Assembly: GCF_026930045.1 (NCBI RefSeq)
Contig: NC_072740.1
Coordinates: forward strand, 29,684,384 to 29,748,383
DNA: 64,000 nt
Origin: Uloborus diversus
Taxonomy: Eukaryota
Reading direction: 5' to 3'
The notes under the pieces: generated by a model
The model's database searches: none
The model's input: the letters and a program-made list of their open reading frames with translations, nothing else
What the model was told of the DNA's origin: nothing
Translations under genes and position numbers: made by a program
In this document: piece by piece, positions 6,265-57,745 of the stretch
Layout: each line of letters opens with the position of its first letter
How positions within the stretch are numbered: position 1 is the stretch's first letter

Positions 6265-6794
6265 GTATATATATTACGGTAGAATTTTATTTTCATTAGA
6301 TATTTTATAAAACACTTTTTTGCGTACAATATATATATTGTATATTGAATTAAAAAATGTAAACTGCTTTGGGTAATATTACTTAATGTACCTTTTCTTA
6401 AGGGCTTGTTTAATTTCTGTTTCTGCCACCATGACCTACTGATAAATGTGCTTCATGAATTGCGGTGAACATTGAACATTTCTTCACAATACACGTAAAA
6501 TCTAATATTGTAGCTGACTGATTTATGGGATAGATTAGTTTTTAAACATTGACAAAACTGTCATTACGTCATATCTTTATAGTCTACGATACCCTTCGGA
6601 ATTTTTTCTACTATTTTTTTCAGCTAATTTTGATTTTACTATAATTCACTTTTATTAACGAATCGTCATAGTTTTCTTTCGTCAACAAAGACCTGTGTAC
6701 TATATTTTTTGAGTTCATAACAGTTACTAAAACTTGAAATTGAAACGCTGAAGCATATCAGCCATTATTAAAAACTCTATGAAAGCTATCAAGG

Positions 6795-11645: not shown

Positions 11646-12256
11646 TACAGTGTAAAAAAATTCCGAAACGTTACTGAGTATTTCCGTGTAACGTTTCGGG
11701 ATTTCTGTGGTTTTTATGCACTTCCTGGAAAAGTCAAGTATCCTTGACAAAAAGTTTCCTGGATTGCTACAGATCTAGCGAATGCAGACTTCTAGCTATT
11801 ATAAAAAACATTTTTAGCTCCCAGTTTAAAGATTAAATGAGCGTTTTTATAAAGTGTATCCGCTTTAGTTCAAGTGCGGCCCGTCCAGACTGATAAGGCG
11901 TCCAAAGGGTGCAAATCTGTCTATGGACTACGTAGCTTTGCAAGAATTGCAGGCGAGAAAAATTCTTGATACTTACTTGCAGTTCTGTCTTAGCTTTGGC
12001 CATGAATGAAATACTGCTTTTGGAACTTTCCCCGAAACGCAGTAAGATGTTTATTCTAAGATTCCAGAGATACGACTGGCTTTAAACGGGAAGAGTTCTG
12101 AATATTTTAGGGAGCTTCCAGGATAATTTCAGTAAGGTTACTGAATTTCAGCGGAAAACGTTCCTGGTTTTTCTAAGATATGTTACTGGAAGAAATTGGG
12201 CACATCAGATGCCCATTATTTTCCAGGAACGTTTCTGAATCGTTTTTACAGTGTAG
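11646..12256 (+). mobile_element. MITE-like non-autonomous TIR element, copy 1 (about 610 bp)
   Basis: Colinear with 18548-19199. For example, 'tacagtgtaaaaaaattccgaaacgttactgagtatttccgtg...ttcggg' matches 'tacactgtaaaaaaatctgtaaggttactggttatttccgtgg...ttcggg', and '...ggaaaacgttcctggttttt...attattttccaggaacgtttct...tttttacagtgtag' is shared. The termini 'TACAsTGTAAAAA' / 'TTTTTACAGTGTA' are inverted. Confidence 0.75.
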
Positions 12257-18547: not shown

Positions 18548-19199
18548 TTTTTTAAAATACACTGTAAAAAAATCTGTAAGGTTACTGGTTATTTCCGTGG
18601 AACGCTTCGGGATTTCACACGTTTTCACCTATTTCCCCGTAAAATCGACTATCTTTGAGACAAAGTTTCCTGAATTGCTACAAGTTAGACGAATATAGAC
18701 TTGTCACTGTTGAGAAAAACATTTTTAGCTGACAATTTAAAGATTGAATGAGCGTGTTTATTAAGTGTGTCGGCTTAAAGTTTGATTAAAACCTGCTCGA
18801 GTTGACTATGCCCCCCATGGGAGCGAATAAGTCACTGGATAGCCGCACCCTTGGAAGGCAGGAATTGCAGGCAAGGAATGTGTGTAGTTCTTGCTTGCCA
18901 ATTTGGCTTGCCTTTGCAGTGGTTTACTCTAATGCTTCGGGAGTTTTTTTGGTAAATCAGGAAGATTTTAATCCATTACATTAAACCTACTTGTTTTATT
19001 TAGGTTTCCGAGACATGACTGACTTAAGCACAGGAGGAGATTTCTCTATTCTTCAGAAAGTTTCGATTAAAATTTCAGAAAGGTTGCTGACTTTTAGCGG
19101 AAAACGTTCCTGGTTTTTGCAAGAAATGTTACTGGCAGAATTTGGGTATATCAGCTGCCTATTATTTTCCAGGAACGTTTCTAAAGCTTTTTTACAGTG
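18548..19199 (+). mobile_element. MITE-like non-autonomous TIR element, copy 2 (about 650 bp)
   Basis: Same family as 11646-12256 (see that entry) and in the same orientation. The flanks differ, so these are independent insertions; both copies are followed by 'tag'. Confidence 0.75.
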
Positions 19200-22100
19200 T
19201 AGAGGCATGTAACCGTTCTGTATCTTACTGGTGACATAACAGCAGTGCCAGATCTAGAAATTTTCTGAGGTGGGGCAAAACCTTAAAATGCCGTCTCCCC
19301 CAACACATCCATCCATCTTGTTTTAAATTTTTCTATCAAGTTGAATTTTCGTAATTTTAATTAACCTGTAAAGTTCGATATAGATTGACTACAAATTCAT
19401 TTTGTACTAGTAATGTCATTATGAGCAATTTTTTTGTTAAAACGGAGGCATACCGTAACACAAATTGCAATTAAAAACCTTCTCTGCTCCTCTTTTTTCC
19501 GATAACGAGTTCAGTGTTCGGATAAGAATGCTTTGGTTTTAATCTTCCAGTTTTCGCCACCTGCAGCTTTTTTGCTGCAAGGGAACAATGGATCTTCAAC
19601 TTACGGTCCGCGAACAGATTTTTCCCGGCCCGCGGGAAGCTTACAAACTGAGATTTTTTTCTTTCAATTGATAATTTTGAACATTTTGAAAGAAAACTAA
19701 GCCCAAAACCACTACTAGCCAGAGAAGAGCAGGGGGGGGGGGAGAACTGTCTCTTTCTACAGGAGGGTCTTCGACTTTCACTTTCCTCCTTCAAGCCATC
19801 AAAGATAGTTTAAAATTGCATTTGTGAGACTTTAATGTCGAAAAATTTCTGTAGGAGAGCCGTTTACCTGCCTTTTCTTCTTCATTTGACCAAAAATAGC
19901 CTTAATTGGGGACTTTGAGATTTTAATTTCTTGAAATTTCCGGGATGAGCCACGATCCCCTTCCGGAACGTCTCAATGAAAATATTTTAAAATTGCGGCT
20001 CCTTAAAAGAACAGCTCCAGAATTCTGACTATTTTTCTAACATCATAAAGGATGTCCAGAAATATGTTTTTAGAATATCATTCCAAAAAATTTTCCGAAT
20101 AGAGCATTTGACCCCTCCTCATCTCCTAAACATCACAAATTACCAAATTTTTCTCAACTTGGCAAATAATTTTCAGGACAATAATTTTCTGTAAAAAAAT
20201 CACATATGTGAATATATAGGCGGCTCCTGTAAGCTATCATTTTTTTTATCTTTTTTTATTTTTTGAAGTGAAGGACTATAAACCATGGGCCTGTAAAATC
20301 AGGACTGACACGCGACAAGACGTGCTCAATGCTAGTTTTGTCGCCAGTCCCTCCTCCTGTTACGCTAATTTTACTCTATGCGCACTACTTTAATTCCGAT
20401 AATGGTGAACATATGACCAAGCATTTCCATGAGTCAATAATTATCGGGAGTTGAGGAGCGAAGCGAGCAGTAGTTGCAGCCCCCTAGTTTCATAAAATAA
20501 AGCAAATGCCCTGTTTTGAATTTGCTCAATCCAAATCAACACTTTTAAAACTAATACGTCCTAAGTTACGGATGCTGGGCCGGTCATTTCGAATTTTTTC
20601 CCGGGGAGATTTTGCAGGGAAAAATAATTTTTACTTTCTATTCATGGTTACGGCTAGAAGGGGGAGGACGCGTCTTTTTATCTCAAAGTAATTAGCTAAC
20701 TTGGTTTTTTAAGGAACTGCGGTTAATCAAGATGTCCCGATAATGATCTGCAAAAATAACCCAATGCATAAAAGCAGAAAAAAGCTACTATCTTTCCTGT
20801 ACTAATTTCACTGGTAACGATTGATTAATGTATAAAGGAGCCTATGAAAACCTGCACACAGACCCACGATTCCCTACAACGTTCTTTGTTACACCACCGA
20901 GCATTTTTCATTTCAGAACAAATATGAGAGATTAGAATAAATAAAATAACTTCTACATTACATTTTTATGACTAAGTTTTCACTTTTATTTTGTAATTTA
21001 CCTCGTATCCAGAGCAAATAAGAAAAAAAGTAAACGTTAGATACTGCACACTTTTATAATCTTTTCTTATAGAAATCAATGCTAGCGAAAATATCTTTAA
21101 TAGCGTTTTTGAAGTTTTTACTTCTTCCTGAAAAATATTGAAATTAGCTTCCTTTTTTTTTGTCCAATTTGGAGATGAAACTATATTTCTCCTTTCTGCA
21201 CCCATGACGGAGAGCAATATGTTTATTTGCTGGATTTTGTAAATGCCTCTAGCAACATTTACAAGCTCATCCTCTCCCTGTTTCTAAGCAAAGGGTGCTT
21301 CAGAAAATTTGTGAAGAATGAACTTTTGTATGGTTTTAAGCATGAAATAATTTCAACCCCAAGCGAATATGTATGTATTTTTATTTTACCTTGACATCGT
21401 AAAATGTGCCACCCCTAAAATATGTCGCCATTAGGTAGTAGCACGGTGTGTACACAAAAAGCCAGTTGATCAACGAGGAAACAATCAATAATTAATATAA
21501 TTTTATTTAATTTTACTAAGGTCGAATTTATTTAAGTGGCTAGTACACGTGTTCAGGTTCAGTCCTATCAGAAGTGCTTACTTATCTCCCTTTGTAACAC
21601 CTAAAAACGCCTGTGTAAAGAGTCGCTTGCTGCTCGTCGCCCCGTTTTGCCGACTTCTTTTGTAAAATATGCATCTGTTTTTGAAAATAAATGACTCTAT
21701 AAGTCAATTTCAATTGTCAGCAAAATAAACGAGAAAGCACGAAACTCTTTTGCATTACTTTCTTTTTTTTCCCCAGTTTCAAATTGTTAATATTTAATAC
21801 TTACAGTACTTTCCAGAATTTCTTAGAATAAGCAATGTTTTTCTGCCGGAAGAACCACTCGAATTTGCCACCTCCTGAAGCTGCCGCCCGAGGCAAGAAT
21901 CTCGGATTGACCCCTTCCCCCGCTCCCATAGATCCGGCTGTGTATAATAGTAAGTTGAAACGAAACATTTAAATGAAGATTGGCTAACCATTGGCTAATT
22001 TGAGGCAGTTTATTTTTAACTCAAAATTAAGAACTGCAAATCATTTTATTTTTGCTATAAATAATTTATTAAGATGTAATTTTTTCATTTGGGTTCAAAA

Positions 22101-25100
22101 TTCTGCTATTTTTGTTATACAATTAAAGTGATTTTTGTTAGAAGAGCTGAAAACGTGGCTGCCGTATGGCATAAATGTTTATTTTTTTGCTTTAGATGTG
22201 TATTTATATATTTTTTAAAAATATTTGTTAAAATTTTTTGCAGGGAGAAATAATTTTTGCAATTGAGTTCTAAAATTTTTTTTTCTATGCTATTTCTCAA
22301 GAATATTATAAAGTCGCTTGAATTCAACGTATTAGACTCGAAAAAATTCATTAATAGTTGAAATAAAATGACCAGCTGTTGGAGAAAAAGTACTAAATAG
22401 AAATTTTTATCGAACCAATAGTTTTCTTTTCTTTTTTCTTTTTTGCGTTCAAAAGACACAGTTTACTTTAAAAAGAAAAGTTCTAAAAGTTCGAAATAAA
22501 TTACACCCTTAGTCTGTTGAGAGAGATGATGCTAATGTGCTGTTAGAAAATCGATGTTGGTCTTCGGGAAAGTAGGCTCAATTAGTTCTTGACGGAGCAT
22601 TTTGTTTCATTGGAGCTGCTAGAACTCATAAGAAGATCAAGTGTCCGTGACTAGTGAAATAAAATTGGTGATACATTTGAGGAGTGTTTTTTCATGAAAG
22701 ATATTTCCAGTCTTTTAAAAACATGCGAATTGGAAAAAGGCATGCTATTACGTATGGAATGTTAAGCAAGAATGGAAGAGAGATTAAATCTACATTTACT
22801 TCCGGAGTAAATTTCGATTAACATTTAGGCGTGGCCAATATTATGTACGAAATAAGGAATTGTTCGTTTAGATTAACTATGAATAAGCTTTGGGGAATGA
22901 AGATAACGAAAGATGAAATGTACATATTATTCATTTGAAAGCTTTTAATAAGTACACACTTCTGGATTTCTATCTCAGAATCATCAAATGGCGTAATCGA
23001 AGATATCTCATTGCTAAGTAAGTTTCAGAAAAGTTTTGCATCTAGAAGCAAATGATAATTTGCCTCAATTTACCGAGCGCTTGGGTTTTTATTGGTTTAT
23101 TTAAAAACTCTAGTTGCCTTTATGAGTAGTAAAGACCAAAATTGCAGGAAGTAGTCAAGTTTAACTTTGACTTTCAACCAACTTTGATTGTGTTTCTTAC
23201 GCTGCTTGATTTCTTTATTATTTCTAGTTTCTGCATGCGTTGGAGATGTTAGATATCTTTAGGACTTACAGAAAACACTTTGTAGTAACTAAAATTTAGT
23301 TGCAATCACACAATCAATTTCAAATAAGTTTGAAGAGTGTAAGTTTATTTTTGCTTTTTTCACTCTAATGTGCAGAGCTTTGATCACTTATATAATAATA
23401 CTTTGATTAGAGAAGTTGGCAAATTATACTCGCTACAATATCTATTGGAACAGGAACAACGGTTCTTAAATAGTTACAGCAGTCCCTAAAATTTTCAATA
23501 AGAATAAAGTCAGCAGTTCCTCTTATTTCTATCTGAATGCGGACAAGAGTCCCTAAAAACGCACAGATCCGCAACGCAAGGCTGCACAGTTCCTAAACAA
23601 CACAACTGTCCATAAAAATATCGATTACAATAAGAAAAGAAACTCCTGAAAATCCCAATTGGAAATGGGCATGTTATTGCAAGGTGAGGGGAGACAACTT
23701 GCGAAATCTTTCAGTTGTCGATGCTTGAGAATTTTGTCCTTATTCTATCGATTTTTAGGAACTATTGTTAACAAAATAACATCTCATCGGAGCAAGAAGT
23801 CACTGAAAACTTTGATTTAGTCGTAAACATTAGATTATTTTTATACGTTTTTTCAGCTTAATAAGATACTTTATATCACCTGCAAATGTTTCGTTTTCTA
23901 CGTCATGATTACATAATTAAAAATATACCATTGAATGCCATTTAATATAGCAACATAAATAGTTTTAGCAATATAAATGTAATCTTCCGGATGTGTATAT
24001 TTATATGGTGCATTCTGCAGTGCGATATACTTTTTTTTGTTTTATTAAATTGCTAAAAATTGTTGCTGATAAATCTTTCTCACTTTTAATCAGAGAATAC
24101 TTCCTTGAAAACTTAGCATCAGCAGAAGGGACATCACTTTTTTCAATCTTACTAGTAATTTACACTCTCCCTATATAAGTTTGTCTATCTTGTTCAAGTT
24201 TTCAATCGTTAGTAAAACACTTTTTATTCATCTGATCAAGTTTAAATACATTTTTTAAAAACTTGCAGTGGATGACAAAACAATATGGTTATACAATTTT
24301 TTGAAATATTAATTTAAAAATTAAATTAATTTTCTATTTTGCCTCTTAATATTGTGATTCTGTCATATGTATATACATATCTTTATTAATTGTAATTATT
24401 TAATAAAAAGTAACAAAATAAAAATATTTTTTGTTGACTTAAGTAGGAATTGACTTTTTATATTACTTGTTTGTACTTACTGCTCTGAGACAAATCATTT
24501 CAAATCTTTGACACAGCGTTGAAAAAGAACAATGTGTATGAAGTCATTAAGACTCACCAGTAGTATAAACTGAATAACTGCAGCAACTTAATTCACCTTT
24601 TGACTGTACAAGTCATAATTCCGTTTTATGAGAGTGAGAATCCACCCTCATCACGTGTTAGATTCATGACGCTGGAGCTGAAATACAATCCTCTTTGTTC
24701 TGCAATATAAACATACTCAAAATTTCCTTGCAATTCTCCCTCCAACTAACAGGATATTTATGCTCTCTTACCATAAAGTAAGTGTGATACACTGTTGTAA
24801 CCCTTGTCTATAATATCTCGGCGACAAATGTGAAGATGAATCCAAAGATTTACGACTATAGCGTGATTAAATTTCTCGCTACATCTTCAATGGTAATGCT
24901 TTAAAGAAATAATTCATAACACATTTTAATTCCATTAGTTATTCGAACAACATTGAAAACATTTCAAATGCATGAAATGCATTTTATTTCTTAATTTTTT
25001 ATGGAAAAATGTAAAAGGAAAAAAAAAACTTTTTGAAAACTAAACAAAACATTGCGAACTTTCTTATGAGTAACATTTCCGAAATCCTTTTCATTACTCA

Positions 25101-25960: not shown

Positions 25961-26974
25961 ATACAGTCAACTCTTGATAACTCGAAGTCCTAAGGGACCG
26001 GCTAAAACCTTCAAATAATCGGCAGTTCGAGTTGTCGAAAGCTACTTATCCAGCCTCCTAAAGATTTTTTTTCTTTTTTTTAGGAATAGTGCATAGTAGA
26101 TAGATTATAACGCTGATAGTTTCGATAAAACTAAATATTAGTAATTCATAAAATTATCTTTGCGGAGCGTGACAAATAATAACTTCGTTATCATTGCTGT
26201 TTATGAAACCAGTTCTTAAAGCAGTTTTAACTACTTAAAGCCATAAGCGAAGTTTCTTTTCTCCTGAATTCAGTTCACATTCTTTTAAAATGTCTTTTGC
26301 CCTAAAAGCACGATTATTTGAACTATCCAGAAAATAAAGAATACCTTTTTCATTTTTTTAATAAAATTTTAAATCTTTCAAAAATTAGCCAGCAATGAAA
26401 TTTTAGATTGTCAGCCACGGCAAAAAGTAGCCCGATCGGCTACTTTTCACGCTGTCTTGCAGGAATGCGCATTAAGGAGCACTGTAGTAAATTAATAATC
26501 CCACTCATACAAACTGATGAGAAAAACAATCTTATTTTGGCTACATTTTTATGCATAAATGAAAACGAAACTTTTGTAAAAACTTCGACTTAAAAGGAGT
26601 AAATTCGAGATAAAGATACAACTTTGAATTGAAAAAACTAAGTTATTTTGGGACCGAATGAAAACTTCGAGATAAAGGAATCATCGAGTTATAAGGCTTC
26701 GAGTTATGGAGAATCGACTGTATTAAGAGATCGATCACGAAATGAAACAATACCACGAAATCTGAAATGAAACAATACCATAAAATCCGATACAGACAAG
26801 TAACTTGACAGCTCACTTGCCAACTACAACTGTTACAGAAGCTTTGAACACTTAAAAAATAGTACTAAAGTTTCAAAAAACAATAGGCATTACTAAAAAA
26901 CCATTATACTTTTTTTATGCTCGAAAATAATTTGCAGGAAATATATTTGTGCTGTAGATAAAATAGTAAATGGG

Positions 26975-27014
26975 CCATTCCACGGAAAACAGTAATTTTG
27001 TCCCGCACGTGACG
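26975..27014 (+). repeat. Left arm of a 40-bp inverted-repeat pair flanking the mariner insertion; contains the GTCCCGCACGTGACG motif
   Basis: 'ccattccacggaaaacagtaattttgtcccgcacgtgacg' is near-perfectly inverted against 28700-28740. Confidence 0.7.
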
Positions 27015-27021
27015 CTTCATA

Positions 27022-28569
27022 TACGAGGCTTGTCCGTAAAACAAGTTCCACCGGCTGCCGCTAGGATCGTTTCTATGCGCGGCCAGGCAACAGAGGCAGG
27101 TTGTTTGGTTCCCCCACTCCAGGGCTGTCCAACTAAAAAGAGCCCACGGGCCAGAACTCCGGTCACTGATCACCTGGCGGGCCGCAGTTTGAAAAAGTTA
27201 AAACAGTAACCTTTTACTTCTTATACAATAAAAATTAGTAGTTGAATCAATTATTATAAAACAAAAGGATTACAAAACAGTTTCATTATTGCCAGCAGAA
27301 GGTCTATCAATGAACTGTCGGAGAGAGAACTCCTGTGACGATTCTTGTTAAAGTTCATCACCGAAAAAGCACTTTCGCATAAATATGTGCTCCCGAAATC
27401 AACAAAGGTCGTAGAGTCAGTGAGGGGGTAATTTTTTTAACCAATTGCAGGCAGGATTTGCTTATCTGAAATATTTCTCTCTTCCCTCCCTGTCTCCCCC
27501 CACCAAAGCGAGGCAATACTATTTCTAGGAATTCGTTTGAACACCAGCTTGCGGGGTGTGACTGCTTGATATTGACCTGTAGATGTCCTGTACCTTTTTC
27601 TCCCAGTACAATGAAAGGAGTAAAAGAGCGATCAAGAGGAAATTTCGAGAACCCTGGCTTGACCAAGAATGGTAGTCACGGATGCTTCATGATACCATAC
27701 AATGTCGAAATAAGAAATATGCTGAATAAGAAGTTGGCGGGCCGCACAATATGTGTTGGCGGGCCGTCAGTTGGACAGCCCTGCCCCACTCAAATCCCTC
27801 ACCAATCCAGCGTCGCTGCGACGTTTAGTCTTGGCTCAGCAGCCGTTAGCAATGGAGCTTCTTCTTGCGTCTCCCGCCAGCTGCGAGTAGCGGTCTGTTA
27901 TTCGTTTTCTGGCCGCTAAGAAGAAATCGGCGAAGGAAATTCACGAAGAACTTTGTCAAGTGTATGGAGAAGAGTGTATGAGCTCCGGGATGGTGCGCAG
28001 ATGGGTCAGGGGCTTTAAAAATGGCCGAACAGACGTCCACGACGAAGCCCGTGCAGGGCGGCCATCGGTTTCCGACGAAACAATTGCCAAAGTCGGAGCT
28101 GCAATGCTTGAAGATCGACGAATTGCAGTTCGGGAGCTGTGCGAAAAGATTCCGGAGGTCAGCAAAACCACAATTGACAAGATTTTGACTGAACATTTAG
28201 GCACAGCTCTCATCGAAAGATTTGGATGGGAAATGGTGTCTCACCCACCCTACAGTCCAGACTTAGCACCAAGTGACTTCCATCTCTTCCCCGAGTTGAA
28301 GAAAAACCTTGGCGGAACCCAATTCCAGACAGATGAAGAGGTACAAAACGCGGTTGTTCGTTTTCTACACGGACAGACGGCACAGTTCTATGACTCTGGT
28401 TTGAAGAAGTGGGTTCCTCAAATGCAAAAGTGCATAGAACGCAACTGCGATTATGTAGAAAAATAAAAGAAAGACTGAACTTTCCGAAAATGTACTTTTC
28501 TTTGCAATTAAACCAGTTTTTTTTATGTGAAAAAAATTCGTGGAACTTATTTTACGGACACGCCTCGTA
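27022..28569 (+). mobile_element. Internally deleted mariner-family element with about 35-bp TIRs and a TA target-site duplication
   Basis: The 5' TIR 'tacgaggcttgtccgtaaaacaagttccac' (27022) is inverted against the 3' TIR 'gtggaacttattttacggacacgcctcgta' (28540-28569). TA lies at 27020-21 and at 28570-71. Encodes the mariner transposase remnant listed below. Confidence 0.8.
27852..28466 (+). pseudogene. Mariner transposase pseudogene: N-terminal HTH region fused in frame to the C-terminal tail, with the catalytic DDD core deleted
   Basis: The translation 'MELLLASPASCE*RSVIRFLAAKKKSAKEIHEELCQVYGEECMSSGMVRRWVRGFKNGRTDVHDEARAGRPS...TIDKILTEHLG' is a mariner HTH/paired-like N-terminus. It joins directly to 'WEMVSHPPYSPDLAPSDFHLFPELKKNLGG...FYDSGLKKWVPQMQKCIERNCDYVEK', the mariner C-terminus. 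There is an in-frame stop at about 27888, and about 200 aa of catalytic domain are missing. Confidence 0.85.
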
Positions 28570-28699
28570 TATCATAAAAAATAATACCTTAAAAGGATGA
28601 TGAACAAAATTTTGTTGCTTAAGAAACCACAAACACATGTGTGACTTCTTCAGCAAAAACTTTCTTCAAAAATTATTTCTTTTTTATGAAATATATTAA

Positions 28700-28740
28700 C
28701 CGTCACGTGCGGGAGAAAATGACCGTTTTCAATGGAATGG
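28700..28740 (-). repeat. Right arm of the inverted-repeat pair flanking the mariner insertion
   Basis: 'ccgtcacgtgcgggagaaaatgaccgttttcaatggaatgg' is the reverse complement of 26975-27014 with 3 mismatches. Confidence 0.7.
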
Positions 28741-28915
28741 ACATATACATATTTTTTTTTCAATGGTTTAAATAATTATTTCTAAACTAATGAGATGTTT
28801 CCTTTACGTTGGAACCATAGCTTTCAAAATCTGCAGTTTGTTTCGTCATTGCTGTATTAATAGAGCAAAAATATTAGCTTATTCATAAGCAAGTTACCAG
28901 AGGTTGTCTTTGGAT

Positions 28916-28930
28916 GTCCCGCACGTGATG
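28916..28930 (+). repeat. Additional copy of the GTCCCGCACGTGA(C/T)G motif
   Basis: 'gtcccgcacgtgatg' with the same 5' context (t-rich, then GTCCCGC) as at 27000 and 29096. Confidence 0.6.
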
Positions 28931-29095
28931 CATGTAAATATTTTTTTTTTAAATAACAAAATTGTTTAATAAAAATATAATTGTGTCATGAGTATCTTTG
29001 TATCAAATGTAAAGATTAAAAAAATTGCTTACCCCCTGTTTCATTAAAATATTAAGAGATATGACGGAATGTTAATTAAATTTAAGCGTATTTAT

Positions 29096-29111
29096 GTCCC
29101 GCACGTGACGG
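29096..29111 (+). repeat. Additional copy of the GTCCCGCACGTGACGG motif
   Basis: 'gtcccgcacgtgacgg' is identical to the core of the arms at 27000 and 28703 (minus strand). It is followed by 'tttcatggcccaaata', which resembles the outer part 'taaatgggccat' of the left arm. Confidence 0.6.
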
Positions 29112-31539
29112 TTTCATGGCCCAAATAGTCTTCTTGAACTGCTTGTCTGCGAGAAGTTGTCGATCGTCGAGAAAATTACATTTTTCTGCTCATTTTTACA
29201 CAGCACCGAAATGGTTGGAATTTTTGTTCTTTTCATTTTTTTTCAAATCTGAAATGGTATGTTTTTTTTAAAAAAGTTAGTGAAAATAAAAAACTTTAAC
29301 GAGATCTCAGAACTTTCAACTAACTATTCAACATTTACACATCATATTGATTAGCTTCAGCTGCTTTCCTTTAAAACATCTTGATATTTCGTTGAATTTA
29401 TTTCCGTAGCTTGACAAACCTCGGCCTTAAAACTGGAATATTAGTTGCAGTGACAGTCCCTGAAATACTTTTTGTTACTACTTTTTCTTCTACTAGTCGG
29501 AATGCAATCAAATTTGGTACTCAGTCTAATTTTAGCCTTCGTTGTTAATTTACGCATAAAATTAAGGATTTTTAATCAAAAATTCCACCTTTGCTTTCAT
29601 TTTACCACACACAAGGCTCCTCATTCAAATTTTACTTGAAAATTTTAAAAGAATTCCTTAATTCTTATCGATTCACGTTTTTCTTTCTTACGTAGTACGT
29701 ATAATGGCTGAGAAATTTAGAATTTCGTTTTTTCTAGGACTCTACCTACATTCTTTTTTATCAACCCTTTTTGTTTCAAACAGCACTTAAGTAATGAATA
29801 TGTCGTGCTAAAACATTGTACAAAGAACTTCATTTGTAGTTTTTCTAACATGAATCGGGGATGTATTTTTTATCTTAAAAACGAACAGCTCTTTTTATTC
29901 TAATTTGAGTAGACCAAGTCACGAAAGAGACAATTTTTCCCCCTTAACATAGTTCGCGTGCTGCACCAAGAGATAGTAAGATGATCTATTTCTGCTTTTT
30001 TTCGAAATTAGTATGTTATATATGCTACTGAAAAACCATTGAGGCTTCCATCAAGATTGAAAACTTGGTAATAAAGAAAATGAAACAATTCTCGCGTAAG
30101 ACATTATATTATCTTCATGTTTCAAAGCTTTCAAAATAAGTAATACATTGCATTTCATTTTCTTAAAAGGGACAAAGACTGTTATTTACTTCCTTTTAGA
30201 TATTTTGAAAGTAATGAAATACGTGAATGTAGCAGGTGAAGTTAATGCTACCGTTTAAAGAACAGAAAAATAATTCATTTTTTTTCACATGGGTTTATTA
30301 CGAACATGATTATTGAAAAACAATTTGCATGGAATACAATGTACATAATGTACAAAACGTTTAATAGATAAGTTTTATTTTCCCAATTAGGGTTGAAAGC
30401 GTTAAAATGACGCTGCATTCTCAGATGATTGTTCAGTTATTCGTTTATTGAACCCATAATTTTTCATTTTTGAGCAGTATTACTTGCTTTTAACTATGCT
30501 TATCATTATAAAGTAATTTTAAACCTTAGTCATGTTTGTTTTTTAGTATCTTGCATGCAAATCAACTTTTATTTATGATATACAACTTGATAATGGATGG
30601 ACACACGTTTTTTTACAGTATTTGAAAGCATAAAAACATCATCACAAGTATTAAGTTAGGATTAAAAATTATCTTAAATCCTAGTCATGAAAACTGAAAA
30701 TTGTATTACATAATATACATAAAGATAAATTAAATTATTACGTACAGATAGACGTTGTTTTGCTGATGAAATTTGAAACCACACTGCAAAAAATAATTGT
30801 TGTTTTTACAGTAATATACTACTTTTTCCTACAGTTTAATACTGCTCAGCTAAATAACAGAGAAAAACTGTAAAAATATTTTAGATTGCGCAAAACGATG
30901 CGCAAAAGGTGTTTCTTTCATACGGGAACAGAAACTAATGAATTCAAGATATTGGCAGCCATGTTTTTTGATGATTCGGGTGTGCTGAGGCAGGACTGCT
31001 GAGACTGTAATCCATGTTAAAGGTAAGTGCTGGTTATATTATATTCATTCCCTTTTCCTCAAAATATAGTTTTCTTTATCATCGAGAATGTATGTAAAAT
31101 AACAGTTTATTTTGAAATCGCAATTCGTATCCTAATATTCGTTGATGCTGACTTTGCAATTTCTTATAGTTGCTAAGTTGTAGCGATTGCTTTCTAGCAA
31201 AAATCCGAGTAGTTGTTGTGATTCTGAATATTTTATTGCATGTGTGATAGTTTTTAAACATTTTCTGAAACTCAAATTTTATTTAAAAATAAATCAATTC
31301 CTTTCTTGATCGTATTTAAAGTTATTAGAACATTAAACTTTGTGTACGATTATATTTTGTGTTATATACTATGTCAGTACTTAAAATTTAAATTTTTATC
31401 TTCTCTAGTGAATTTTTAACATATCGCGATTGACTTCTTTCTTCTGTTTTTTTTTTCTTTCTTATGTTCAGTTTTAAATTCTTTAACATTTTGCATTTAA
31501 CCATTTTATTGAAAAACTTTACGTTATAGCATCAGTAGC

Positions 31540-32699: not shown

Positions 32700-34545
32700 G
32701 GGCTCCTTAGCAGTTGAGTTCTTTAAAGTGAGGGGGGGGGGGGCGATTATTTTCACAATAAAGGACGATTTTTCAAGAAACTCTCCAGTTTATTTCTTTA
32801 AGAAGAAAAGGGAGGTTTAAGAACGTTTTGTCAGGTTTCAAAAGATAAGAGAGATTTGTGGCAAAGCTCCGATAACGGAAAGGAATTTCTGAACTCCCGG
32901 TTTGAAATTTACCTTAGCGACCAAAGCATAAGAATCGAAAAAACCAACAAATCCTCTAATTAACAAAGTAGCGTCATAGAACACTATAAGTCAACATTAA
33001 TTGAGAGCGGCTTTAAAAGGAAAAACCAAACCCTTTTTTGAGCTTTTTGGGGGAAGAAAGTCATCTATTAAACAAAACCTATTTTGAGCTATTTGGGGTA
33101 AGAAAGCCATCTATTAAACACTTCCGGGGGTTTTTTTTGGATGCATTTCGTATATTGGACTTCCAAAACAGAAAATAAACAAATTGGATATGAGAACTCA
33201 ACAAGGAGTCATGGTAAGATATGCGTTTCATACGAAAGGTTACAGAATTTGGGATCTCAAAAATCGCGAAGTGACAGAAACGCTGAATGTTAAATTCGAT
33301 GAAAATAAATTCTGGACGAAACCCCCCCCCCCCCAGGAACGAGAAACAGAGGGACACAGTTTTATTTCACTACTGAGTAAATCTGAAGTAGAAGAAGAAT
33401 ATCCTGAAAATTATAAAATAGCATGTTGAGAATTAAATGGGTTAAAGCAAGTCAAACGCAAAATAAAGAATACAGGGATAAGTATTATTCTATTGACACG
33501 ATGGTTCTAAAGTCCGAATCGTGAAGCCGAGGTTTATTGTTCTGAAAATAACATTGAATATGACACAAAATATTTTAATTTCACCTTGTGATGATAATTC
33601 AAGAAAAGTATAGGATTTTTATGAAGATAGGGGGGATAATTCAAGTATGCTAGAAGCTAACATTTCCGAGATTTAAAATTGGCAAAACGGAATGGCTCAA
33701 GAAATTCAGGTGATATGAGAAAGAAACGTTTACGTATTGGTTCCACTGAATGAAAGTTTTAGAAAGAAAAAAGGGTACAGATGTTTTTTTTTTAATTTAA
33801 AAACAAATGAGCAGAATGAAATAATGCGCTTCAAGACCAGACTGGTAATTTGAAATACCCACCAGGTGGGGGGGGGGGTACTTTTCGAAAGTGTTCTCTC
33901 CAGTAATTTCCTTTCCTTTGATTAAGGCTTTCTTTTCAGTTTTTGTGTATAAGCTACATTGAGTCCATTTCCATGTAGATGTTTGCAATGAGTATCTAAA
34001 TGCGGATGTAAAAGAGGAGATTTGTGAAACAACCTGAAAGGTTTGTCCGTCCCTGAAATCTAAATTTTGTCTGTAAATTGAATAAATCATTGTCATTCTG
34101 ATACAGATTACGCCTCGAATCACGACGACCGGATTTCAATGGGGGGGGGGGGGCTTGTAGTGTTTTTGGATAGGGTACGAATAATATGGTGGTACATTCA
34201 AACAAAAATGCGTACAACTGTCAACGATGGAAGCGGAGTATATTTCAATTAGTGAATAATCTAAGGATGTGAGTTAAAGGAATTTTAAATCAATTGGCTA
34301 CGAAAAGAGTTCAGAATTTTAGATTGTCACAGTACAGAGTACTATTAATCAATCTAGTTGCAATCGATTTTTCTAGTTCTGCAATAGAAAATTGCAGAAC
34401 TAAGCAGATTGATGTGGGGTACTATTTCCTAAGGATTTTGATTGATAAAAATGAATTTGGAATACAATTTGATGAAACTAAAAATAATGTAGCTGATTGT
34501 TTTACAAAACCTTTCTCTAGGGAAAATTTACATAAAGCTTGAATT
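32700..34545 (+). mobile_element. Degraded, internally deleted Ty1/copia-type LTR-retrotransposon pol fragment
   Basis: Integrase-core-like 'KPTNPLINKVAS*NTI' resembles TPQQNGVAERKNRTI. 'KGYRIWDLKNREVTETLNVKFDE' at 33230-33300 is the copia integrase C-terminal motif. 'EEICETT*KVCP' at 34014-34049 resembles the RT motif EEIYMKQPEGF, and 'STMEAEYISISE' at about 34218-34253 is the RNase H motif. The pol C-terminus 'KQIDVGYYFLRILIDKNEFGIQFDETKNNVADCFTKPFSRENLHKA' lies at 34400-34542. The remnant is interrupted by G/C homopolymers at 32742, 33322, 33868 and 34141 and by frameshifts. No LTRs identified. Confidence 0.7.
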
Positions 34546-37500: not shown

Positions 37501-38718
37501 CTGTGAATGTTTCATTTTTTCTCATGAAAACAGTATAACATAATATAAAGTTATGTAATTTTTGGAGTAGTAAAACCAATTTTTAACTTTAATACTAGTA
37601 CTCATAAACCTGCAGATTTTATTATACCGAGTGAAAAATTGTTTCCGTTTAGTAGCTCTGAAATTTTAAACCGTCACATATTTATAGTTTTTATCTATGT
37701 AAATTTTAAAAGGTTAATAGGATAAAGTATTATCTAATCTATAATAATCAGTTTAGAATAAAAACCATTCTGTGCAGTCTAAATGCTGTATACTGCACAT
37801 ATGGTGTGAAATAAAATTAGTTTGTTACTAGTATTTTTCAAATAAAGTAGGTCCAAATGCAACGTATAACATTAAAAAAAGAAGAAAACCATGAAAATAT
37901 TCTGTTTTACCATAAAAGAAAAATAAATGCATATAATTGCATGCATCAAGTTAAAATAAACTTAAAGGTTTAATGGATTGCATATTGAAAAACATTTCTC
38001 ACGTTATGCTGCACATTTTAGCATTACAATAATGCTGGAAGTGAAAAAAGTACTTTTAGTGAAGATACGATGTAGTATTTTCAGTTATATATAAAAAAAC
38101 CTTTCTCATTTTTACTACCTCCATGGATCAAAAAGTTTTGTATTATGAAAAAGCTATAACTGTTCTTAAAATAAAGCTTCAGACCATATTTTGCAATTTC
38201 CTTCAATTTGTAAATTTTTAAGTCTGCAATAGAGCTAAAAGTTTTTTGTAGAAATGAAAATGCACCACTTTTTCTTCTTTAACATGTGTTTATAAAATAT
38301 TGAGATGGGGCATTGATTTATTTTGTCTACAACGAAATTAATATCAATAAAACATATATTTAGCAGCAGTTAACTATTTTTATGTAAAAGTGTTTTATAT
38401 TTCTTTATTTGTCGCTTTTCATAGCCTAAAACATTTTTGTTGTTGAAAAACTTAAGAAAAGGAACAGATTTCGTATGTAGGCTGATTTATACAACGTACA
38501 TACTGACTCAATTGCTTTACTTTTCGATATTGTTCTTCAGCTGTAAAAGCAGTGATTTCAGCTATGAAAAGAAACGATAGGGTGAAAAAACCCTTTTGCA
38601 TAAAAATTGATGACTTCATTTTATGGTTTACTGCTGTTAATTTTACTGTACAAATCATTTATAAAACCGTGTACTACTGCTGCTTTTATGGCACAATTCA
38701 GTTGATTCCGCAGCATAA

Positions 38719-38978
38719 TACTGCTAACTTTACAGTTTGATACTGTAAGTTTTACAGGGCAGTTTTATTAAAAAGCAGTATATTACTGCTAATTTTACAG
38801 TTTGATACTGTAAGTTTTACAGGGCAGTTCTATTAAAAAGCAGTATATTACTGCTAATTTTACAGTTTATCACTGTAAATTTCACAGTAAAAGTCTGTTA
38901 TAAAACAGTATATTACTGCAAATTTTACAGTTTAGAATTGTAATTTTTGCAGTTTTTCTTTGGAATGCGAGCTGCCAG
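38719..38978. repeat. Minisatellite: four tandem copies of a 65-bp unit
   Basis: Unit 'tactgctaattttacagtttgatactgtaagttttacagggcagttctattaaaaagcagtatat' starts at 38719, 38784, 38849 and 38914, with increasing divergence. It contains the internal palindromic core 'tactgtaa/ttacagta'. Confidence 0.9.
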
Positions 38979-46175: not shown

Positions 46176-46608
46176 GCAAAAAAATTTTGAAAAAAAATAG
46201 AACCGACTTCAAAATTGCTCTAAAAAGTGAAAAATAATTTTATTCTTTAAACACCATCGATAATACTTTTAAACATAATTTTTGAAGTTGGCGCAAAAAC
46301 GATCGATAAAATCATTCACAGCCATAACTCAACTACAAGTATAAATTTAACCACGTCCAGTTTCTTCACGCATTGATGACAGCATATTTGAGTAACGATA
46401 TAAATGTTTCGTTCCTAAGTTCGGATGATTTTTTGATAAAAATGTGAACGAAGCATGGTTACAATGGATTTTACTTTTTGCTTTTGCGCCAACTTCAAAA
46501 ATTATGTTTAAAAGTATTATCGATGGTGTTTAAAGAATAAAATTATTTTTCACTTTTTAGAGCAATTTTGAAGTCGGTTCTATTTTTTTTCAAAATTTTT
46601 TTTATTTC
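46176..46608. repeat. Near-perfect palindrome: 125-bp inverted arms (100% identical by eye) around a 185-bp unique spacer
   Basis: The left arm 46177-46299 'aaaaaaattttgaaaaaaaatagaaccgacttcaaaattgctctaaaaagtgaaaaataattttattctttaaacaccatcgataatacttttaaacataatttttgaagttggcgcaaaa' is the exact reverse complement of 46485-46607. Confidence 0.9.
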
Positions 46609-48635: not shown

Positions 48636-49401
48636 AAATAAAGAAATCTATATCTATCGAGTCGAATGTATAACTGTATGAATGCAATATAACGTAATTC
48701 CGCCTCCCTGTCCGATTTGAACAAGATTTCTGGCAAAATTCAACCACCCTCTCGACGAAAATGTTAGCAAGGTCTCATTTAAAAAGCTTGAACTAGTTCT
48801 TTATTTATCTACGTTTATAACATTCTTTTGATAATACGAAATTGAATGAAATGTCTAATTTTTTCCGTTTTCAAATTATCATTTCTAACCATCATTTAAA
48901 AGCTTGAACTAACTATTAACTCTTTGATGGACGGAGACTTCCTTTGCTGCAATCATTAAAAGAAAAAAAAAAAAAAAAAAAAGCGTACTGCCGTTTTTTT
49001 TTATCGTTATTATTATTTTTTTGCAACGAATTGGTAAAATAAGCTATCTTAGGATCCGTTATGGTATTTTTTTTTCTTTCTAATGGGGCTTAGTTAGATG
49101 CTTTAGCCTTTTCGGACCTAGTGCGAACCACCGATATGGCATCGAGTCTTTCAAATGCTACCATTAAGGCACGGATGTGACTGGCACAAGAAATTTTGGT
49201 GCCGAGTTTCCACCAGATAGAGACACTTGAGCTCTCTTCGATGCGAAACTGCGCTAGGGGTTTAATTTTGTCAAGCCAAACGAATAGCTGAGAGATCTTT
49301 TACCTGTCGATTAATAGAATGTATAGTGAATGAAATTAAGCATCTATGTATTTTTATTTTAACAACATTTTGGAAAATGCAAATGATTGCTTTTTATAAA
49401 T

Positions 49402-49450
<49 letters not shown>

Positions 49451-50816
49451 GTTATGAATGATTTGAACATTATTGGCGATTTTCCCCTGATGTTTTCAAT
49501 TTGATGCTTCATTTAAAAGACCAAGAGGAGGCATCGCACCCTCCTATCTCACCACCAAACACGAGTTCAGTTTATTCTGCCAATACAAAAAAACTTCTGT
49601 ACAAATCAGTCTTTTTCAAATTAAAAATTAAAACAACTACAGCGAAAATGGCAATATACTCTACTCTATTACGAATTATCGCGTCAATATTTGATTATAA
49701 CCTGGTTACTTTACTGTCTTTATTAGCAGTAAGCAAGTGTTCGACTCAAAAATTTCATAATTTGGAGTCAAACGTCAAATTTTGATCATTAAGGTAATCT
49801 TCGTCCCGTTTGCGATTGCGATAATACAGTAGCATTAAATTAGATACATTTTCAACAAGATGTAATAAGCATAAAGCTAGCCAATTTTTGGAATCAAAAC
49901 TTATAGGTTTCTTATAGCCTCAGTTTGTAAATTTTTTGCTCCTCAGTCATCTGATGTTCAAAAGTCTAAAGTCAATCGTTTGTAAAAACTCTTAGAATGA
50001 TTGTGGCTAAAAATCCAGTAATGATTTAAATCTACCTTTCAAAATTCATGTAACAATAATAACACTTCTGATTCTTTCATTTTCAAGTTGGTATAACTGC
50101 CATTTTAGGAGCGATTTTGTAATCATCCTGTATTCTCGAAAGCATATCATATTTTATAACGTAGGTATTGACTTTTTTTCTTTCTTTTATGTGATGTTAG
50201 TAAAAGATATTCTATTGCAAGAAATAGCAAATAATTTTAACTTGAAGAAATTAAGAGTTAAAAAAAATAATTCTAATATAGACGTGAAATACACAAGAAA
50301 ATTTACCTCGCATTCACCTTTTCTTAATTATACGCGCAGTAAATAGCAGAAACTTTCACCTAGTAATTTATAGTTAAATGCACATGTCCGTTTTTTGTTC
50401 CGTTTAATGCTACCTTCGTAATTTACTAATGATGGATGCATAGATGCTTATTAAATAATTCCTCAGTAAAAAGGCGGTAATACTAATCAGAAAATTTATT
50501 CCAATGAAACAAATAGAAATTTGCTTTTCTTGAAAAACGGAACAACATCGAAGAAAATTTTTTTCTTTAGTTAAAAATGACTAGCCGCTCTTCTCTTGGG
50601 ACCATAGACTCACATTTCAGTAAGATTTAAAAGTACGAATTTCAAATAATTACTTTTAAATTACTTGTGTTAATATGACCGAACTTGCAATTTCATAAAC
50701 TGATCACAGTAAAATATTCAAGTAATTTTCAATTTCATTCTTCGCTTCATAAAATTTTGATACAGCAAAAGTAATTTCGTTGCATCAGCTTCAAATTTAT
50801 TTATTCACTTATGTTC

Positions 50817-50847
<31 letters not shown>

Positions 50848-51795
50848 TTTCAGGATTACAGTTTAAAAGTTGTAAGCTTCCGGGGAGATAAGTAATCTAT
50901 TATTGTTAAAAATAAACTAAAAGTTTAAATAAGATTATTAATCAAAATATAAAATGAATCTGAAATGAATCATCCCAAAAATATAAAGAGCAAAAATAAA
51001 TTAATTAATAATTAATGTTTATTTTTCCTCATCCTCAAACACACGTAATGTGTAGAATTTCTTTTTCGTTGCTGTCTGAACTTAGTTTTAAAATGGGAAA
51101 ACATATTAACACATAAATTGCTCGTATTTTTAAGAAAACTTTAAAAGGGTTTTCTTACTTTACTGTTCACCACAAAGGTATTTATTTATCTTACAACTTA
51201 CCTAGTTTGTGTACACTTAATTTTCTTTTGATTACAATTTTGTTCAAGATATGTTTCCTATAAGCGCGTGGTAGAAAAAAACTGTGTGTTAAAACAGAAA
51301 ATAGTAGGAATTTCAATTACTGATTCACTAGGGATGCACCTCACTCTGGCTGTCCTTCGTGCAGCATGTGTCAAGGAAATCAAGTCCAAACGGAAAAAAA
51401 GTCAAAACAAAAAGAAGAAAGAAAGAAAACCACACCAATGAGACTGCGGAATGTTTGTTTTCAATTACTTTGCCGATAGCAATCTGGTGGACTGAGGGAA
51501 AGGGGCCGAATTTCAAGGTCACAACTTCGGACGGAGTACGCGACACAGCAAGAGACAGGCGGCAACTGGGAACCCGCAGTTATTGCACGAGGTTCTCGTG
51601 TTCTGAATTGACTCGGACGCGGGAAAATATCCGATTAATGGGAATATTTAAGGGGAAAATACCAGGTTTCATAAAATTTCTCTCTTTGAAAAATTTTTGT
51701 TGACGTGAGGTGCAACAACTGAGAAAAAGCAGACAGTGGTCTTTCGGAAAGGGGGGGTCCGGACCCCATGGACCCCTCCCTTTGGCTACGTCTTT
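48636..51795 (+). repeat. Copy 2 of the dispersed 2.5-kb repeat, expanded to 3.2 kb by a copy-specific insertion
   Basis: See the entry for copy 1. Colinear blocks are 48636-49375 vs 227-1055, 50140-51320 vs 1095-2230, and 51320-51795 vs 2230-2752. The G-run is G8 here vs G14 in copy 1. An A31 tract at 50815 replaces T10G10 in copy 1. Confidence 0.85.
49375..50140 (-). mobile_element. Roughly 765-bp insertion present only in repeat copy 2, ending in a 45-nt poly-A on the minus strand (T45 at 49403-49447); a retroposon-like insertion
   Basis: It is absent from the orthologous position in copy 1 (1055-1095). The long homopolymer at one end suggests a poly-A-tailed retroposed element inserted in minus orientation. 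There is no tRNA-like head and no recognisable ORF product (ORF 49501-49785 has no detectable similarity). Confidence 0.45.
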
Positions 51796-53149
51796 GACCA
51801 TGTTTTCTTTCACGCTAGCGGTACCCGCACGGCGCGGCGTTGCTCGTGAAAGAAAAATTAAAAGACCAGATGCTTCGCCATTATGTAAAGCAAGGGTTCT
51901 CAATCTTTTAGACATTGCGACCCCCTTTTTAGACTAAGTATTTTGGTGACCCCCCCCCCCAAGTTTTAACTCTGTCTAAACCCTAAAACAAGCTAACTAC
52001 ACAAATGGTTAAGTTTTATCCTTAGAAACAAAAGTAACTAGTAAAATAAGCATGCATTTTTGTCTCTTGAATTATTTAATAAGAGACAGAAGTTGACCTT
52101 ACTGATTTTATAAACATGCAGTAGTTTTATGACAATTGTTACCTTGCGCTCCTTCAAGTCCTATATCATTGCACACAGTACGAAAAACACAGCAATAAAT
52201 TAATTTTCTTTGAACTTTTCTTACACAGATCGCGAACCTCTGGACCATTCCGCGACCCATCTAAGGGTCGCGACCCAATGTTTGAGAACCCCTGATATTG
52301 AGGGTGGTTATGAAATAACGTGAGGTGCTCAGAGGCCTCTAGCGAGTCAAGTATTGGACGAAACTCACTCAAAATAAATAGGCGTACAATGTACACAGTA
52401 GACCATGGGATTTCGATTTCTGAAACAATAAATAAAGTTACAAAAATATCTACGAGTGTAAATTTTGGAGTTGAAAAGGTGGAAATACTCTCATATTGGA
52501 GAATTTAACGCCAACCGATCAAATGAGCATCTTTTTTATAAACAAATGATGATTTTTTTTTACTATTACGTTGTTGTTTCAAGAACTGCCATACGATGCA
52601 TAACCTTTCCCACACATCCGAATTAATTTGTCCCACCTGTAACATCATTCAAGTTCTCAGAATTGCAATATCGAGAACATGTTCTCGATACACAACATTT
52701 TCAAGAAATCACTGTAGTGTTACAAGAAGAAACATTGGAAAACCGAGGGGCCTATACCATAAGATATGCACAACTAATGAATGCCATAGAAGAAATATTG
52801 CTGTATCTAAAATCGAATGAGAGATCGTTCACCACCCTGCTTGAATATGGTCTAAAAAACTCATTCTCGCTGCAGTACCAAAATTTCATTGCGGTGACTT
52901 TTTGTGGTTTTTGTTTTAATATTAGAAATTGAAATTCGATTGTGGTTTTATTGAACGTCCTTTGTAAGTAACAATCAATTGTAGCTCAAAAATTGATGTT
53001 TGCTGCACTGTTATTCATTTAACCCTTACAATATACATTTGTTCAACATTCAGTAAGTTCATGTAACTTTCGGTACGAGAATAGTAATATTGTTCTTTTG
53101 AGATCTAAGTAGGGTCAAATAAAGGAGATCACCCGAGCATAATCAACGA

Positions 53150-56307: not shown

Positions 56308-57745
56308 CAGTAGTTACATACACCCCTGTTTGTGAAAATTGCAACACCACGAAGGACTTACGTGAGTGAGCTGAAAATTGCAGGAATGTAAGGTAGGGCG
56401 TAATATGCAAATGATTAGAATTGCAGACCGGTAGCGCATGCGTATGCTGAGCAGCACCCTCTGAACGGTGGATCGAACCGGATATAAATAGGCGGCTGTA
56501 GCGAGCCGTGTATGATTATTGGCGGTTATATGCTAGAGTACACATTAACTGAATCTGTACTATGCCTCTTCGACGAAAGAAAGCGAAATTTGAGCAAATT
56601 TCGGAGTTTGAACGGTGCATAATCGTTGGCCTTCGTGAAGCTGGATTGTCTTATCGTGCAGTAGCCGCTCGTGTGCAGCGTAAAAGCAGCACAATCATGC
56701 GTGTTTGGAAGTAGAGGACGGACGAGGGTCGGACAGCTCGGAAATCCGGGAGTGGACCCCGAAATGTGACGTCAGCTCGCGATGACAAACACCTGGTGCG
56801 TATGGCGCTGACGGACTGCACAGCTTCTTCTAGACAATTGGCAGCACAGTGGTCAACAGCTACAGGTGTTTCATCGTGTGCTTCATCAATTCGGAGACGT
56901 CTGCTGCAGCGTGGGCTGCGCGCAAGGATTCCTTTATACAGGATTCCTCGTGCGCAAAACCGTCGCCGCCTGCGGATACAATAGGCCAATGTGCATAGGA
57001 GCTGGCGTGCTGATTGGCAGCAGGTCGTCTTTTCTAACGAATCCCGCTTCAATTTGTGGCACCGTGATGGCCGAATTCGTGTCAGGCGCTATGCCGGTGA
57101 ACGGCACATTCCGGGTGCAATATCGAACGCCGGTGGACGAACACCCGGAGTTATGGTCTGTGGTGCCATAGAATATCATGGACGATCACAATTGCTATGA
57201 ATTGTGGGCAGTTTGAACAGTACCTGATGCATAAACGAAGTTTTACAGCCACAAGCTATTCCTTTCCTGCAAGGATTGCCAGGGGCTGTATTCCAGCAGG
57301 ATAATGCCCGTCCACATGTCGCCAGGACTGTAAAATCCGACCTTGATTCGCAGCAGGTACAGCTTTCTTTCTTGGCCTGCATATTCCCCGGATATGTCAC
57401 CGATTGAACATGTGTGGGATTTCGCTGGGCGGCGTCTCGCTCGTGATCCTCGTTCTGTTGCTTCGACAGACGAACTTTGGTTGGGCATACAAACAATATG
57501 GAATGCTCTTCTGCAGGCAGATATTCAAACTTTGTTTCACTCCATGCCGAGTCGTGTAGCAGCTCTTATTGTGGCGCGTGGTGGCCACACAAAATACTTA
57601 TTTCTATCTCTTTTAATTGTTTGTTTGGTTTGAAAATGTAATCATTTATTTGTACCATTACCACTCAACTGTGTATTAAATTTCATTCAGCTATGATGCT
57701 TCCTTTATGGTGTTGCAATTTTCACAAACAGGAGTGTAGTAATTG
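56308..57745 (+). mobile_element. Tc1-like DNA transposon of about 1.44 kb with roughly 40-bp TIRs
   Basis: The 5' TIR 'cagtagttacatacacccctgtttgtgaaaattgcaacacc' (56308-56348) follows a TA. The 3' TIR 'ggtgttgcaattttcacaaacaggagtgtagtaattg' (57709-57745) is its inverted counterpart, with the inner 24 nt identical. A TATA-like 'atataaatagg' lies upstream of the ORF. Confidence 0.9.
56562..57603 (+). pseudogene. Tc1-like (DD34E) transposase with three in-frame stops and one frameshift
   Basis: 'MPLRRKKAKFEQISEFERCIIVGLREAGLSYRAVAARVQRKSSTIMRVWK*' matches the Tc1 HTH N-terminus. '...WQQVVFSNESRFNL...GRIRVRR...' and 'FQQDNARPHVAR' are DDE-core motifs. 'LSWPAYSPDMSPIEHVWD...LWLGIQTIW...MPSRVAALIVARGGHTKY' in frame +1 is the Tc1 C-terminus. 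There are stops at about 56712, 56982 and 57198, and a frameshift near 57350. Confidence 0.9.

Follow-up and report, generated by a model that had tools for sequence, protein, structure and literature searches.

The locus described here lies in a 64-kb stretch of contig NC_072740.1 (positions 29,684,384 to 29,748,383, 64,000 nucleotides; hereafter the window, whose own numbering is used throughout). It consists of three elements, one inside the other, together with a short recurrent sequence. The outermost element, about 250 nt long, is a palindrome without coding capacity. Inserted in it is a defective mariner transposon of the Mos1-type family (27024-28567, + strand), and inserted in the mariner is a 664-bp non-coding miniature inverted-repeat transposable element (MITE) of hAT type (27120-27783). 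The short sequence is a CpG-rich core of 15 nt, GTCCCGCACGTGACG, which contains the E-box hexamer CACGTG and occurs once in each arm of the palindrome and twice more downstream. The order of insertion (palindrome, then mariner, then hAT-type MITE) is established, as are the element boundaries and the target-site duplications (TSDs). As a whole, the locus is very probably a standard nested-transposon structure, a hAT-type MITE within a defective mariner within an older palindrome, in arthropod DNA that is non-coding and rich in transposons. Its sole non-routine feature is the four-fold 15-nt E-box-containing core. In what follows, strands are given for the mariner, its transposase remnant and the cores; the palindrome arms, the MITE and all TSDs are given without strand.

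An inverted pair outside the mariner was recovered both by a repeat scan (26953-27023 with 28692-28762, 76%) and by blastn (26960-27023 with 28692-28755, 83%), which bears out an earlier sequence-only reading of this DNA. That reading had also described 130 bp on the 3′ side of the mariner as unrelated sequence. We reconstructed the empty site by removing the mariner and one TA (27024-28569) and joining 26960-27023 to 28570-28756. At the resulting junction GACGCTTCATATA meets TATCATAAAAAATAAT, where the reverse complement of the right arm reads GACGGTTAATATATTTCATAAAAAAGAAA; the reconstructed empty-site sequence is ...GACGCTTCATATATCATAAAAAAT.... Local alignment of the arms is unbroken across the reconstructed site, from 26960 to 28756, and the mariner must therefore have inserted into a pre-existing palindrome. 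Because the arm homology crosses the junction and the palindrome is centered at 28633-28642 (symmetry axis ACACATGTGT), the supposedly unrelated 130 bp is the inner half of the palindrome, made up of the rest of the left arm and the inner part of the right arm.

The left arm is thus in two pieces. Its outer part (26960-27023) holds core A, pairs with 28692-28756 at 76 to 83%, and is followed directly by the mariner; its inner part (28570-28637), delimited by the alignment across the empty site, lies beyond the mariner. The right arm (28638-28756), delimited by the repeat scan and the same alignment, holds core B, and in each arm the core sits about 45 nt from the outer end. The mariner insertion point is a TA in a TATATA tract, 6 to 9 bp inside the left core. 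Stops occur throughout every frame of the palindrome, and pseudo-proteins read across the reconstructed palindrome and the downstream cores gave no match at E ≤ 10. The reconstructed 262-nt stretch is predicted to fold as one long DNA hairpin, with a free energy of −59.3 kcal/mol compared with −21.8 ± 3.4 kcal/mol for dinucleotide shuffles (z = −11.2), and a second analysis gave an agreeing result.

The mariner is bounded by 28-nt terminal inverted repeats (TIRs) at 27024-27051 and 28540-28567, complementary at 26 of 28 positions. In the repeat scan they appear as an inner inverted pair at 27019-27051 and 28540-28572 (94%), confirming the mariner TIRs with TA on each side that had been noticed from the letters. 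The TA duplications lie at 27022-27023 on the left, where the element end was set by comparison with eight other genomic copies, and at 28568-28569 on the right, where both the sequence and that comparison apply. The earlier placement of the ends at 27022 and 28569 had included the TSD; the true ends are 27024 (CGAGG) and 28567 (CCTCG), an offset rendered harmless by the local sequence, TATA. Without the nested MITE the copy measures 876 to 878 bp. Its transposase remnant (27852-28466, + strand) begins with an ATG at 27852, is interrupted by a premature TAG at 27888-27890, and retains the C-terminal YSPDLAPSDFHLFP segment. HTH_48 is detected in the mariner translation (Pfam, E = 1.8e-11), and HTH_32 is also present. 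An internal deletion of about 451 bp, at which window position 28202 joins sequence corresponding to positions 6456 and 6908 of an intact Trichonephila clavipes copy (L003), takes out most of the catalytic domain. Judged from its sequence, the window copy is dead.

The best protein matches of the mariner are mariner/SETMAR-like proteins from T. clavipes (91 to 97%), the damselfly Ischnura elegans (94%), Uloborus, and a pseudoscorpion; among metagenomic sequences only distant relatives were found. Relatives 91 to 95% identical carry the PF01359 catalytic domain, and a 310-aa relative matches Mos1 transposase structures (E = 1.5e-35). The eight other genomic copies comprised six from T. clavipes (L001-3, L006, L007, and L009), one on a Logan contig (L008), and one from I. 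elegans (L014). The seven copies from T. clavipes and Ischnura are full length, at about 1.33 kb. Each of the eight has the termini CGAGG...CCTCG, which set the limits of the window mariner at 27024-28567. In seven of them TA adjoins both termini; the Ischnura copy reads T|CGAGG on the left. The flanking DNA differs from copy to copy.

At the DNA level the mariner family is about 94 to 95% identical among the window copy (27024-28567), the Ischnura copy (L014 9875-11206; accession OV121109.1), and a T. clavipes copy (L003 5942-7274). The window copy is about 94 to 95% identical to the T. clavipes copies generally, and the six T. clavipes copies are 99 to 100% identical to one another, which suggests a recent burst in that spider. 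Given the identity of about 95% between spider and damselfly, horizontal transfer of the family between arachnids and an odonate is a possible candidate explanation, and this identity may be of interest to transposon specialists.

The element nested in the mariner has a perfect 15-bp TIR, CAGGGCTGTCCAACT (15/15), and is flanked by 8-bp TSDs of CCCCACTC at 27112-27119 and 27784-27791. In intact mariners CCCCACTC is single-copy (the BLAST segments overlap at L003 6038-6047), and the MITE therefore inserted after the mariner was in place. The length of the TSD and the terminal sequence, taken by themselves, point to hAT as its putative superfamily. Its internal open reading frames (ORFs) have no Pfam match. 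One T. clavipes locus has a weak 57-bp similarity to it, and no second full copy or autonomous partner was seen there or in the other sequences compared. GGCGGGCCG subterminal motifs occur at both of its ends.

Taken together, these results suggest the following history. The non-coding palindrome, about 250 nt in length, is the oldest layer; its arms of about 120 to 130 nt are about 78 to 83% alike. The mariner then entered a TA of the TATATA tract by cut-and-paste transposition, duplicating the TA. That copy is dead, with the premature stop and the loss from its catalytic domain, and the hAT-type MITE later entered it near the 5′ end, creating the perfect 8-bp duplication. Observed divergences fit this order, the palindrome arms being about 20% apart and the window mariner about 5% from the T. 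clavipes copies. The locus accordingly offers a relative chronology that runs from the diverged palindrome through the mariner to a MITE whose TSD and TIRs are still perfect. Its value is mainly for annotation, as a clean example of a three-level nested insertion.

A stretch of 2.1 kb holds four copies of the 15-nt core, none with more than 1 mismatch; even when 3 mismatches are allowed, the 64 kb contain no further match. A motif scan located core A (GTCCCGCACGTGACG, exact) at 27000-27014 on the + strand and core B (CTCCCGCACGTGACG, 1 mismatch) at 28701-28715 on the − strand. Two solo copies follow on the + strand: core C (GTCCCGCACGTGATG) at 28916-28930, whose 1 mismatch is a CpG-to-TpG change and whose flanks show no homology, and copy D at 29088-29113, in which the core proper (29096-29110) is exact. 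The expected number of chance matches at ≤3 mismatches is 0.13 per 64 kb, and none of 100 dinucleotide shuffles gave 4 matches, so that recurrence by chance in AT-rich DNA is vanishingly improbable. The window contains nine CACGTG hexamers, of which four (27006, 28704, 28922, and 29102) belong to the cluster. The four-fold recurrence noticed in the sequence-only reading therefore stands, with a core length of 15 nt rather than 16.

Cores C and D do lack the remainder of the arm, as that reading had stated: likeness of their 150-nt flanks to the arms, or to each other, was no better than that of shuffled sequence. The T-rich 5′ context they were said to share proved weak. Copy D has about 26 nt that are 88% identical to the arm (26992-27017) and copy C about 15 to 17 nt, with nothing beyond in either. 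Tandem Repeats Finder gave nothing relevant to a tandem organization of the four core units, and no second cluster or long repeat was present in the window that would match a larger element with subterminal repeats or long terminal repeats around the cluster. At ≤2 mismatches the core was not found in the T. clavipes loci, 101.6 kb in all with some gene 5′ regions among them, nor in further fetched loci. A literature search returned no match for its 12- to 15-mers, and 10-mers appeared only in papers with unrelated titles.

Two explanations of the arms and downstream cores had been put forward from the sequence: that the mariner inserted into a small palindromic MITE with relatives just downstream, or that the outer arms belong to the mariner as compound or extended TIRs, in which case C and D would be solo termini. 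The only support for the latter is that the arms adjoin the mariner ends in the window copy. It is ruled out, and we give it scarcely any credence. Neither the arms nor the core stand beside the ends of any of the eight other copies, which represent at least two species and one sequencing run and have unrelated sequence directly outside their ends; the seven full-length copies, where the outer arm might have been expected, all lack it. Alignments of the arms with the terminal 80 nt at either end of the mariner scored no better than shuffles. The mariner is also off-center, lying 9 bp inside the left core and 131 bp (28570-28700) from the right core, and the longer of these intervals is itself palindromic. 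We conclude with high confidence that the outer arms are target DNA, since the mariner entered the TA next to the left core and duplicated it, and that they should stay out of any mariner consensus. For the former explanation, the order of insertion is upheld by the unbroken arm alignment and the clean TA duplication, whereas the MITE status and the downstream relatives are not: the palindrome has no convincing TSD (no TA, TTA/TAA, or 8-bp duplication at its symmetric boundaries), no second copy of it was found in the sequences searched, and only the core is shared downstream. It is somewhat improbable, in our judgment, that the mariner hit one member of a genuine multi-copy family of MITEs or foldback elements, with C and D as mostly deleted nearby copies of that family. 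Such an origin would suit the architecture of the palindrome, which is typical of MITEs (about 250 bp, non-coding, AT-rich, and palindromic throughout), as well as the transposon-packed surroundings and the extension of copy D to about 26 nt of arm-like sequence. Beyond the lack of a convincing TSD, it has to contend with the fact that no other palindrome copy was found in the 64-kb window, in the 101.6 kb of T. clavipes loci (probably another species than the host), or in the metagenome, viral, and prokaryote collections. Pattern scans with the arm core and its flanks gave 0 matches in metagenome contigs, 2 uninformative matches with unrelated phage-like flanks in viral contigs, and 6 single matches in prokaryote genomes, likewise uninformative against the roughly estimated 17 or so expected by chance. 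It is also hard to explain how two independent relics would keep exactly the same 15 to 26 nt and nothing else. For the palindrome itself, an old foldback or MITE-like repeat and a local inverted duplication are the likeliest origins. The solo cores may be what erosion has left of the same short repeat, or they may be copies, kept by selection, of a protein-binding motif made up of the CACGTG E-box with extended flanks.

The alternative to relics is that the core is a functional binding site, either an extended E-box bound by a basic helix-loop-helix (bHLH) or bHLH-leucine zipper (bHLH-ZIP) factor or a longer site recognized by a multi-zinc-finger protein. The four copies would then form a homotypic cluster with sites about 155 to 215 bp apart once the mariner is discounted, two of them within an old local inverted duplication, and the cluster would be a cis-regulatory or boundary-type module later split by the mariner. 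We regard this as unlikely, even though none of the four 15-nt cores has more than 1 mismatch whereas the flanks of C and D look no different from shuffled sequence, three CpGs are retained in the motif with a CpG-to-TpG transition as the sole change in C, and nearly half of the CACGTG hexamers of the window fall in the cluster. Fifteen identical bases exceed what a bHLH site needs, there is no gene, exon, or CpG-island signal near the cluster, and the core was matched neither in the literature search nor in the T. clavipes loci with their gene 5′ regions. The intact 15-mer of C and D amid flanks that are not recognizably related calls for an explanation, and is compatible both with selection for a binding site and with coincidental survival of the same short piece of older repeats. 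A wider proposal, which we consider quite unlikely as a whole, is that the core may be a selectively kept site for an extended-E-box bHLH factor, for a multi-zinc-finger boundary protein, or for the transposase of an undescribed element (as subterminal repeats), with palindrome and solo cores making up a functional four-site module that would be older than the mariner and was split by it. Several results weigh against the overall explanation of the locus. Between arms A and B the core is kept no more than expected for arms that are about 78% alike; the argument for constraint comes from C and D only. The best candidate for a TSD at the palindrome ends is a mere 3-nt ATA in AT-rich sequence. 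Finally, the surroundings of the cluster yielded neither a gene nor an exon, and a Pfam search of 126 stop-to-stop ORFs in the window found only transposon domains, which leaves a regulatory role without an identified target. Were the core motif enriched genome-wide, it would represent a new repeat family or a regulatory motif of the lineage.

The CpG observed/expected ratio is about 0.9 throughout and marks no island, and Rfam and tRNA scans of the window found nothing. An ATG-initiated ORF of 51 codons (29117-29270, + strand) begins 7 nt after core D; its N terminus is hydrophobic (MAQIVFLNCLSA...), and shortly before its stop comes a donor-like GTATGT. A protein search with a 61-aa ORF starting just after core D returned no homologues. 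The ORF at 29117-29270 likewise has no homologues and is probably spurious.

Elsewhere in the window are further repeats and transposon fragments. A perfect (100%) inverted repeat of 121 bp (46178-46298 and 46482-46602, with a 183-bp spacer) may represent either an assembly artefact or a foldback or MITE-like element of very recent origin. A long direct repeat whose copies have diverged (227-2751 against 48638-51796; four collinear blocks, 73 to 85% identity over about 2.5 to 3 kb) reflects either an old segmental duplication or the presence of a large repeat in two copies. Another direct repeat pairs 11646-12256 with 18558-19202 (70% identity), and 38710-38953 is occupied by a short tandem array whose period is about 65 bp. 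Recognizable coding remnants include an isolated Ty1/copia-type integrase SH3-like fragment (33118-33426, + strand; PF25597, E = 8e-21), around which no other parts of a copia element were detected; a Tc1-like transposase remnant at about 56500-57640, with a YSPDMSPIEHVWD motif and a weak HTH_Tnp_Tc3_2 match; and a non-LTR reverse-transcriptase ORF (59430-60819) whose best named relative, from T. clavipes, is only 50% identical, so that the host is not that species. Exact look-up of ten window ORFs in the protein collection matched none; this test was imperfect, since GTG and TTG starts had been translated as V or L, but the mariner protein search, too, returned nothing near 100% identity over the full length. 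The interval 24172-24475 holds an interspersed repeat of about 300 bp that is 74 to 83% identical to sequence in three unrelated T. clavipes loci (L003, L006, and L009); it is the only non-mariner similarity found, and it hints that the host is an arachnid related to Trichonephila.

The layers of the locus can be set beside known systems. The mariner shares with Mos1-type Tc1/mariner elements the TA duplication, TIRs of 28 nt, an HTH_48/HTH_32 N terminus, and the C-terminal YSPDLAPSDFHLFP segment, and its full-length relatives, at 1.33 kb, have PF01359 and match Mos1 structures. The window copy departs from them in having lost most of its catalytic domain, acquired a premature stop, and been interrupted by another element. 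The nested element resembles MITEs of the hAT superfamily, which have CAG... termini, in its 8-bp TSD, its perfect 15-bp TIR starting with CAGGG, its length of 664 bp, and its lack of coding capacity. It differs from them in that neither an autonomous partner nor another full copy of it came to light in the sequences compared.

The palindrome is like palindromic MITEs and foldback elements in being short, AT-rich, non-coding, and self-complementary over its whole length, and unlike them in having neither a convincing TSD nor a second copy in the sequences searched; without that TSD and a demonstrated second copy, we do not file it as a MITE. MADE1-type MITEs are built from mariner TIRs. The arms of the palindrome, in contrast, are unrelated to the mariner TIRs, and the palindrome is not a mariner-derived analogue of MADE1. 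CACGTG E-boxes are bound by bHLH and bHLH-ZIP factors such as USF, Myc/Max, MITF/TFEB, and CLOCK, and we take the CACGTGAC half-site of the four CACGTG sites to be typical of USF/TFE-type motifs. Compared with homotypic E-box clusters, the identity here extends over 15 nt, longer than a bHLH footprint, and no linked gene was detected in the window; what the locus has in common with such clusters is the presence of four CACGTG sites within about 700 bp of pre-insertion sequence.

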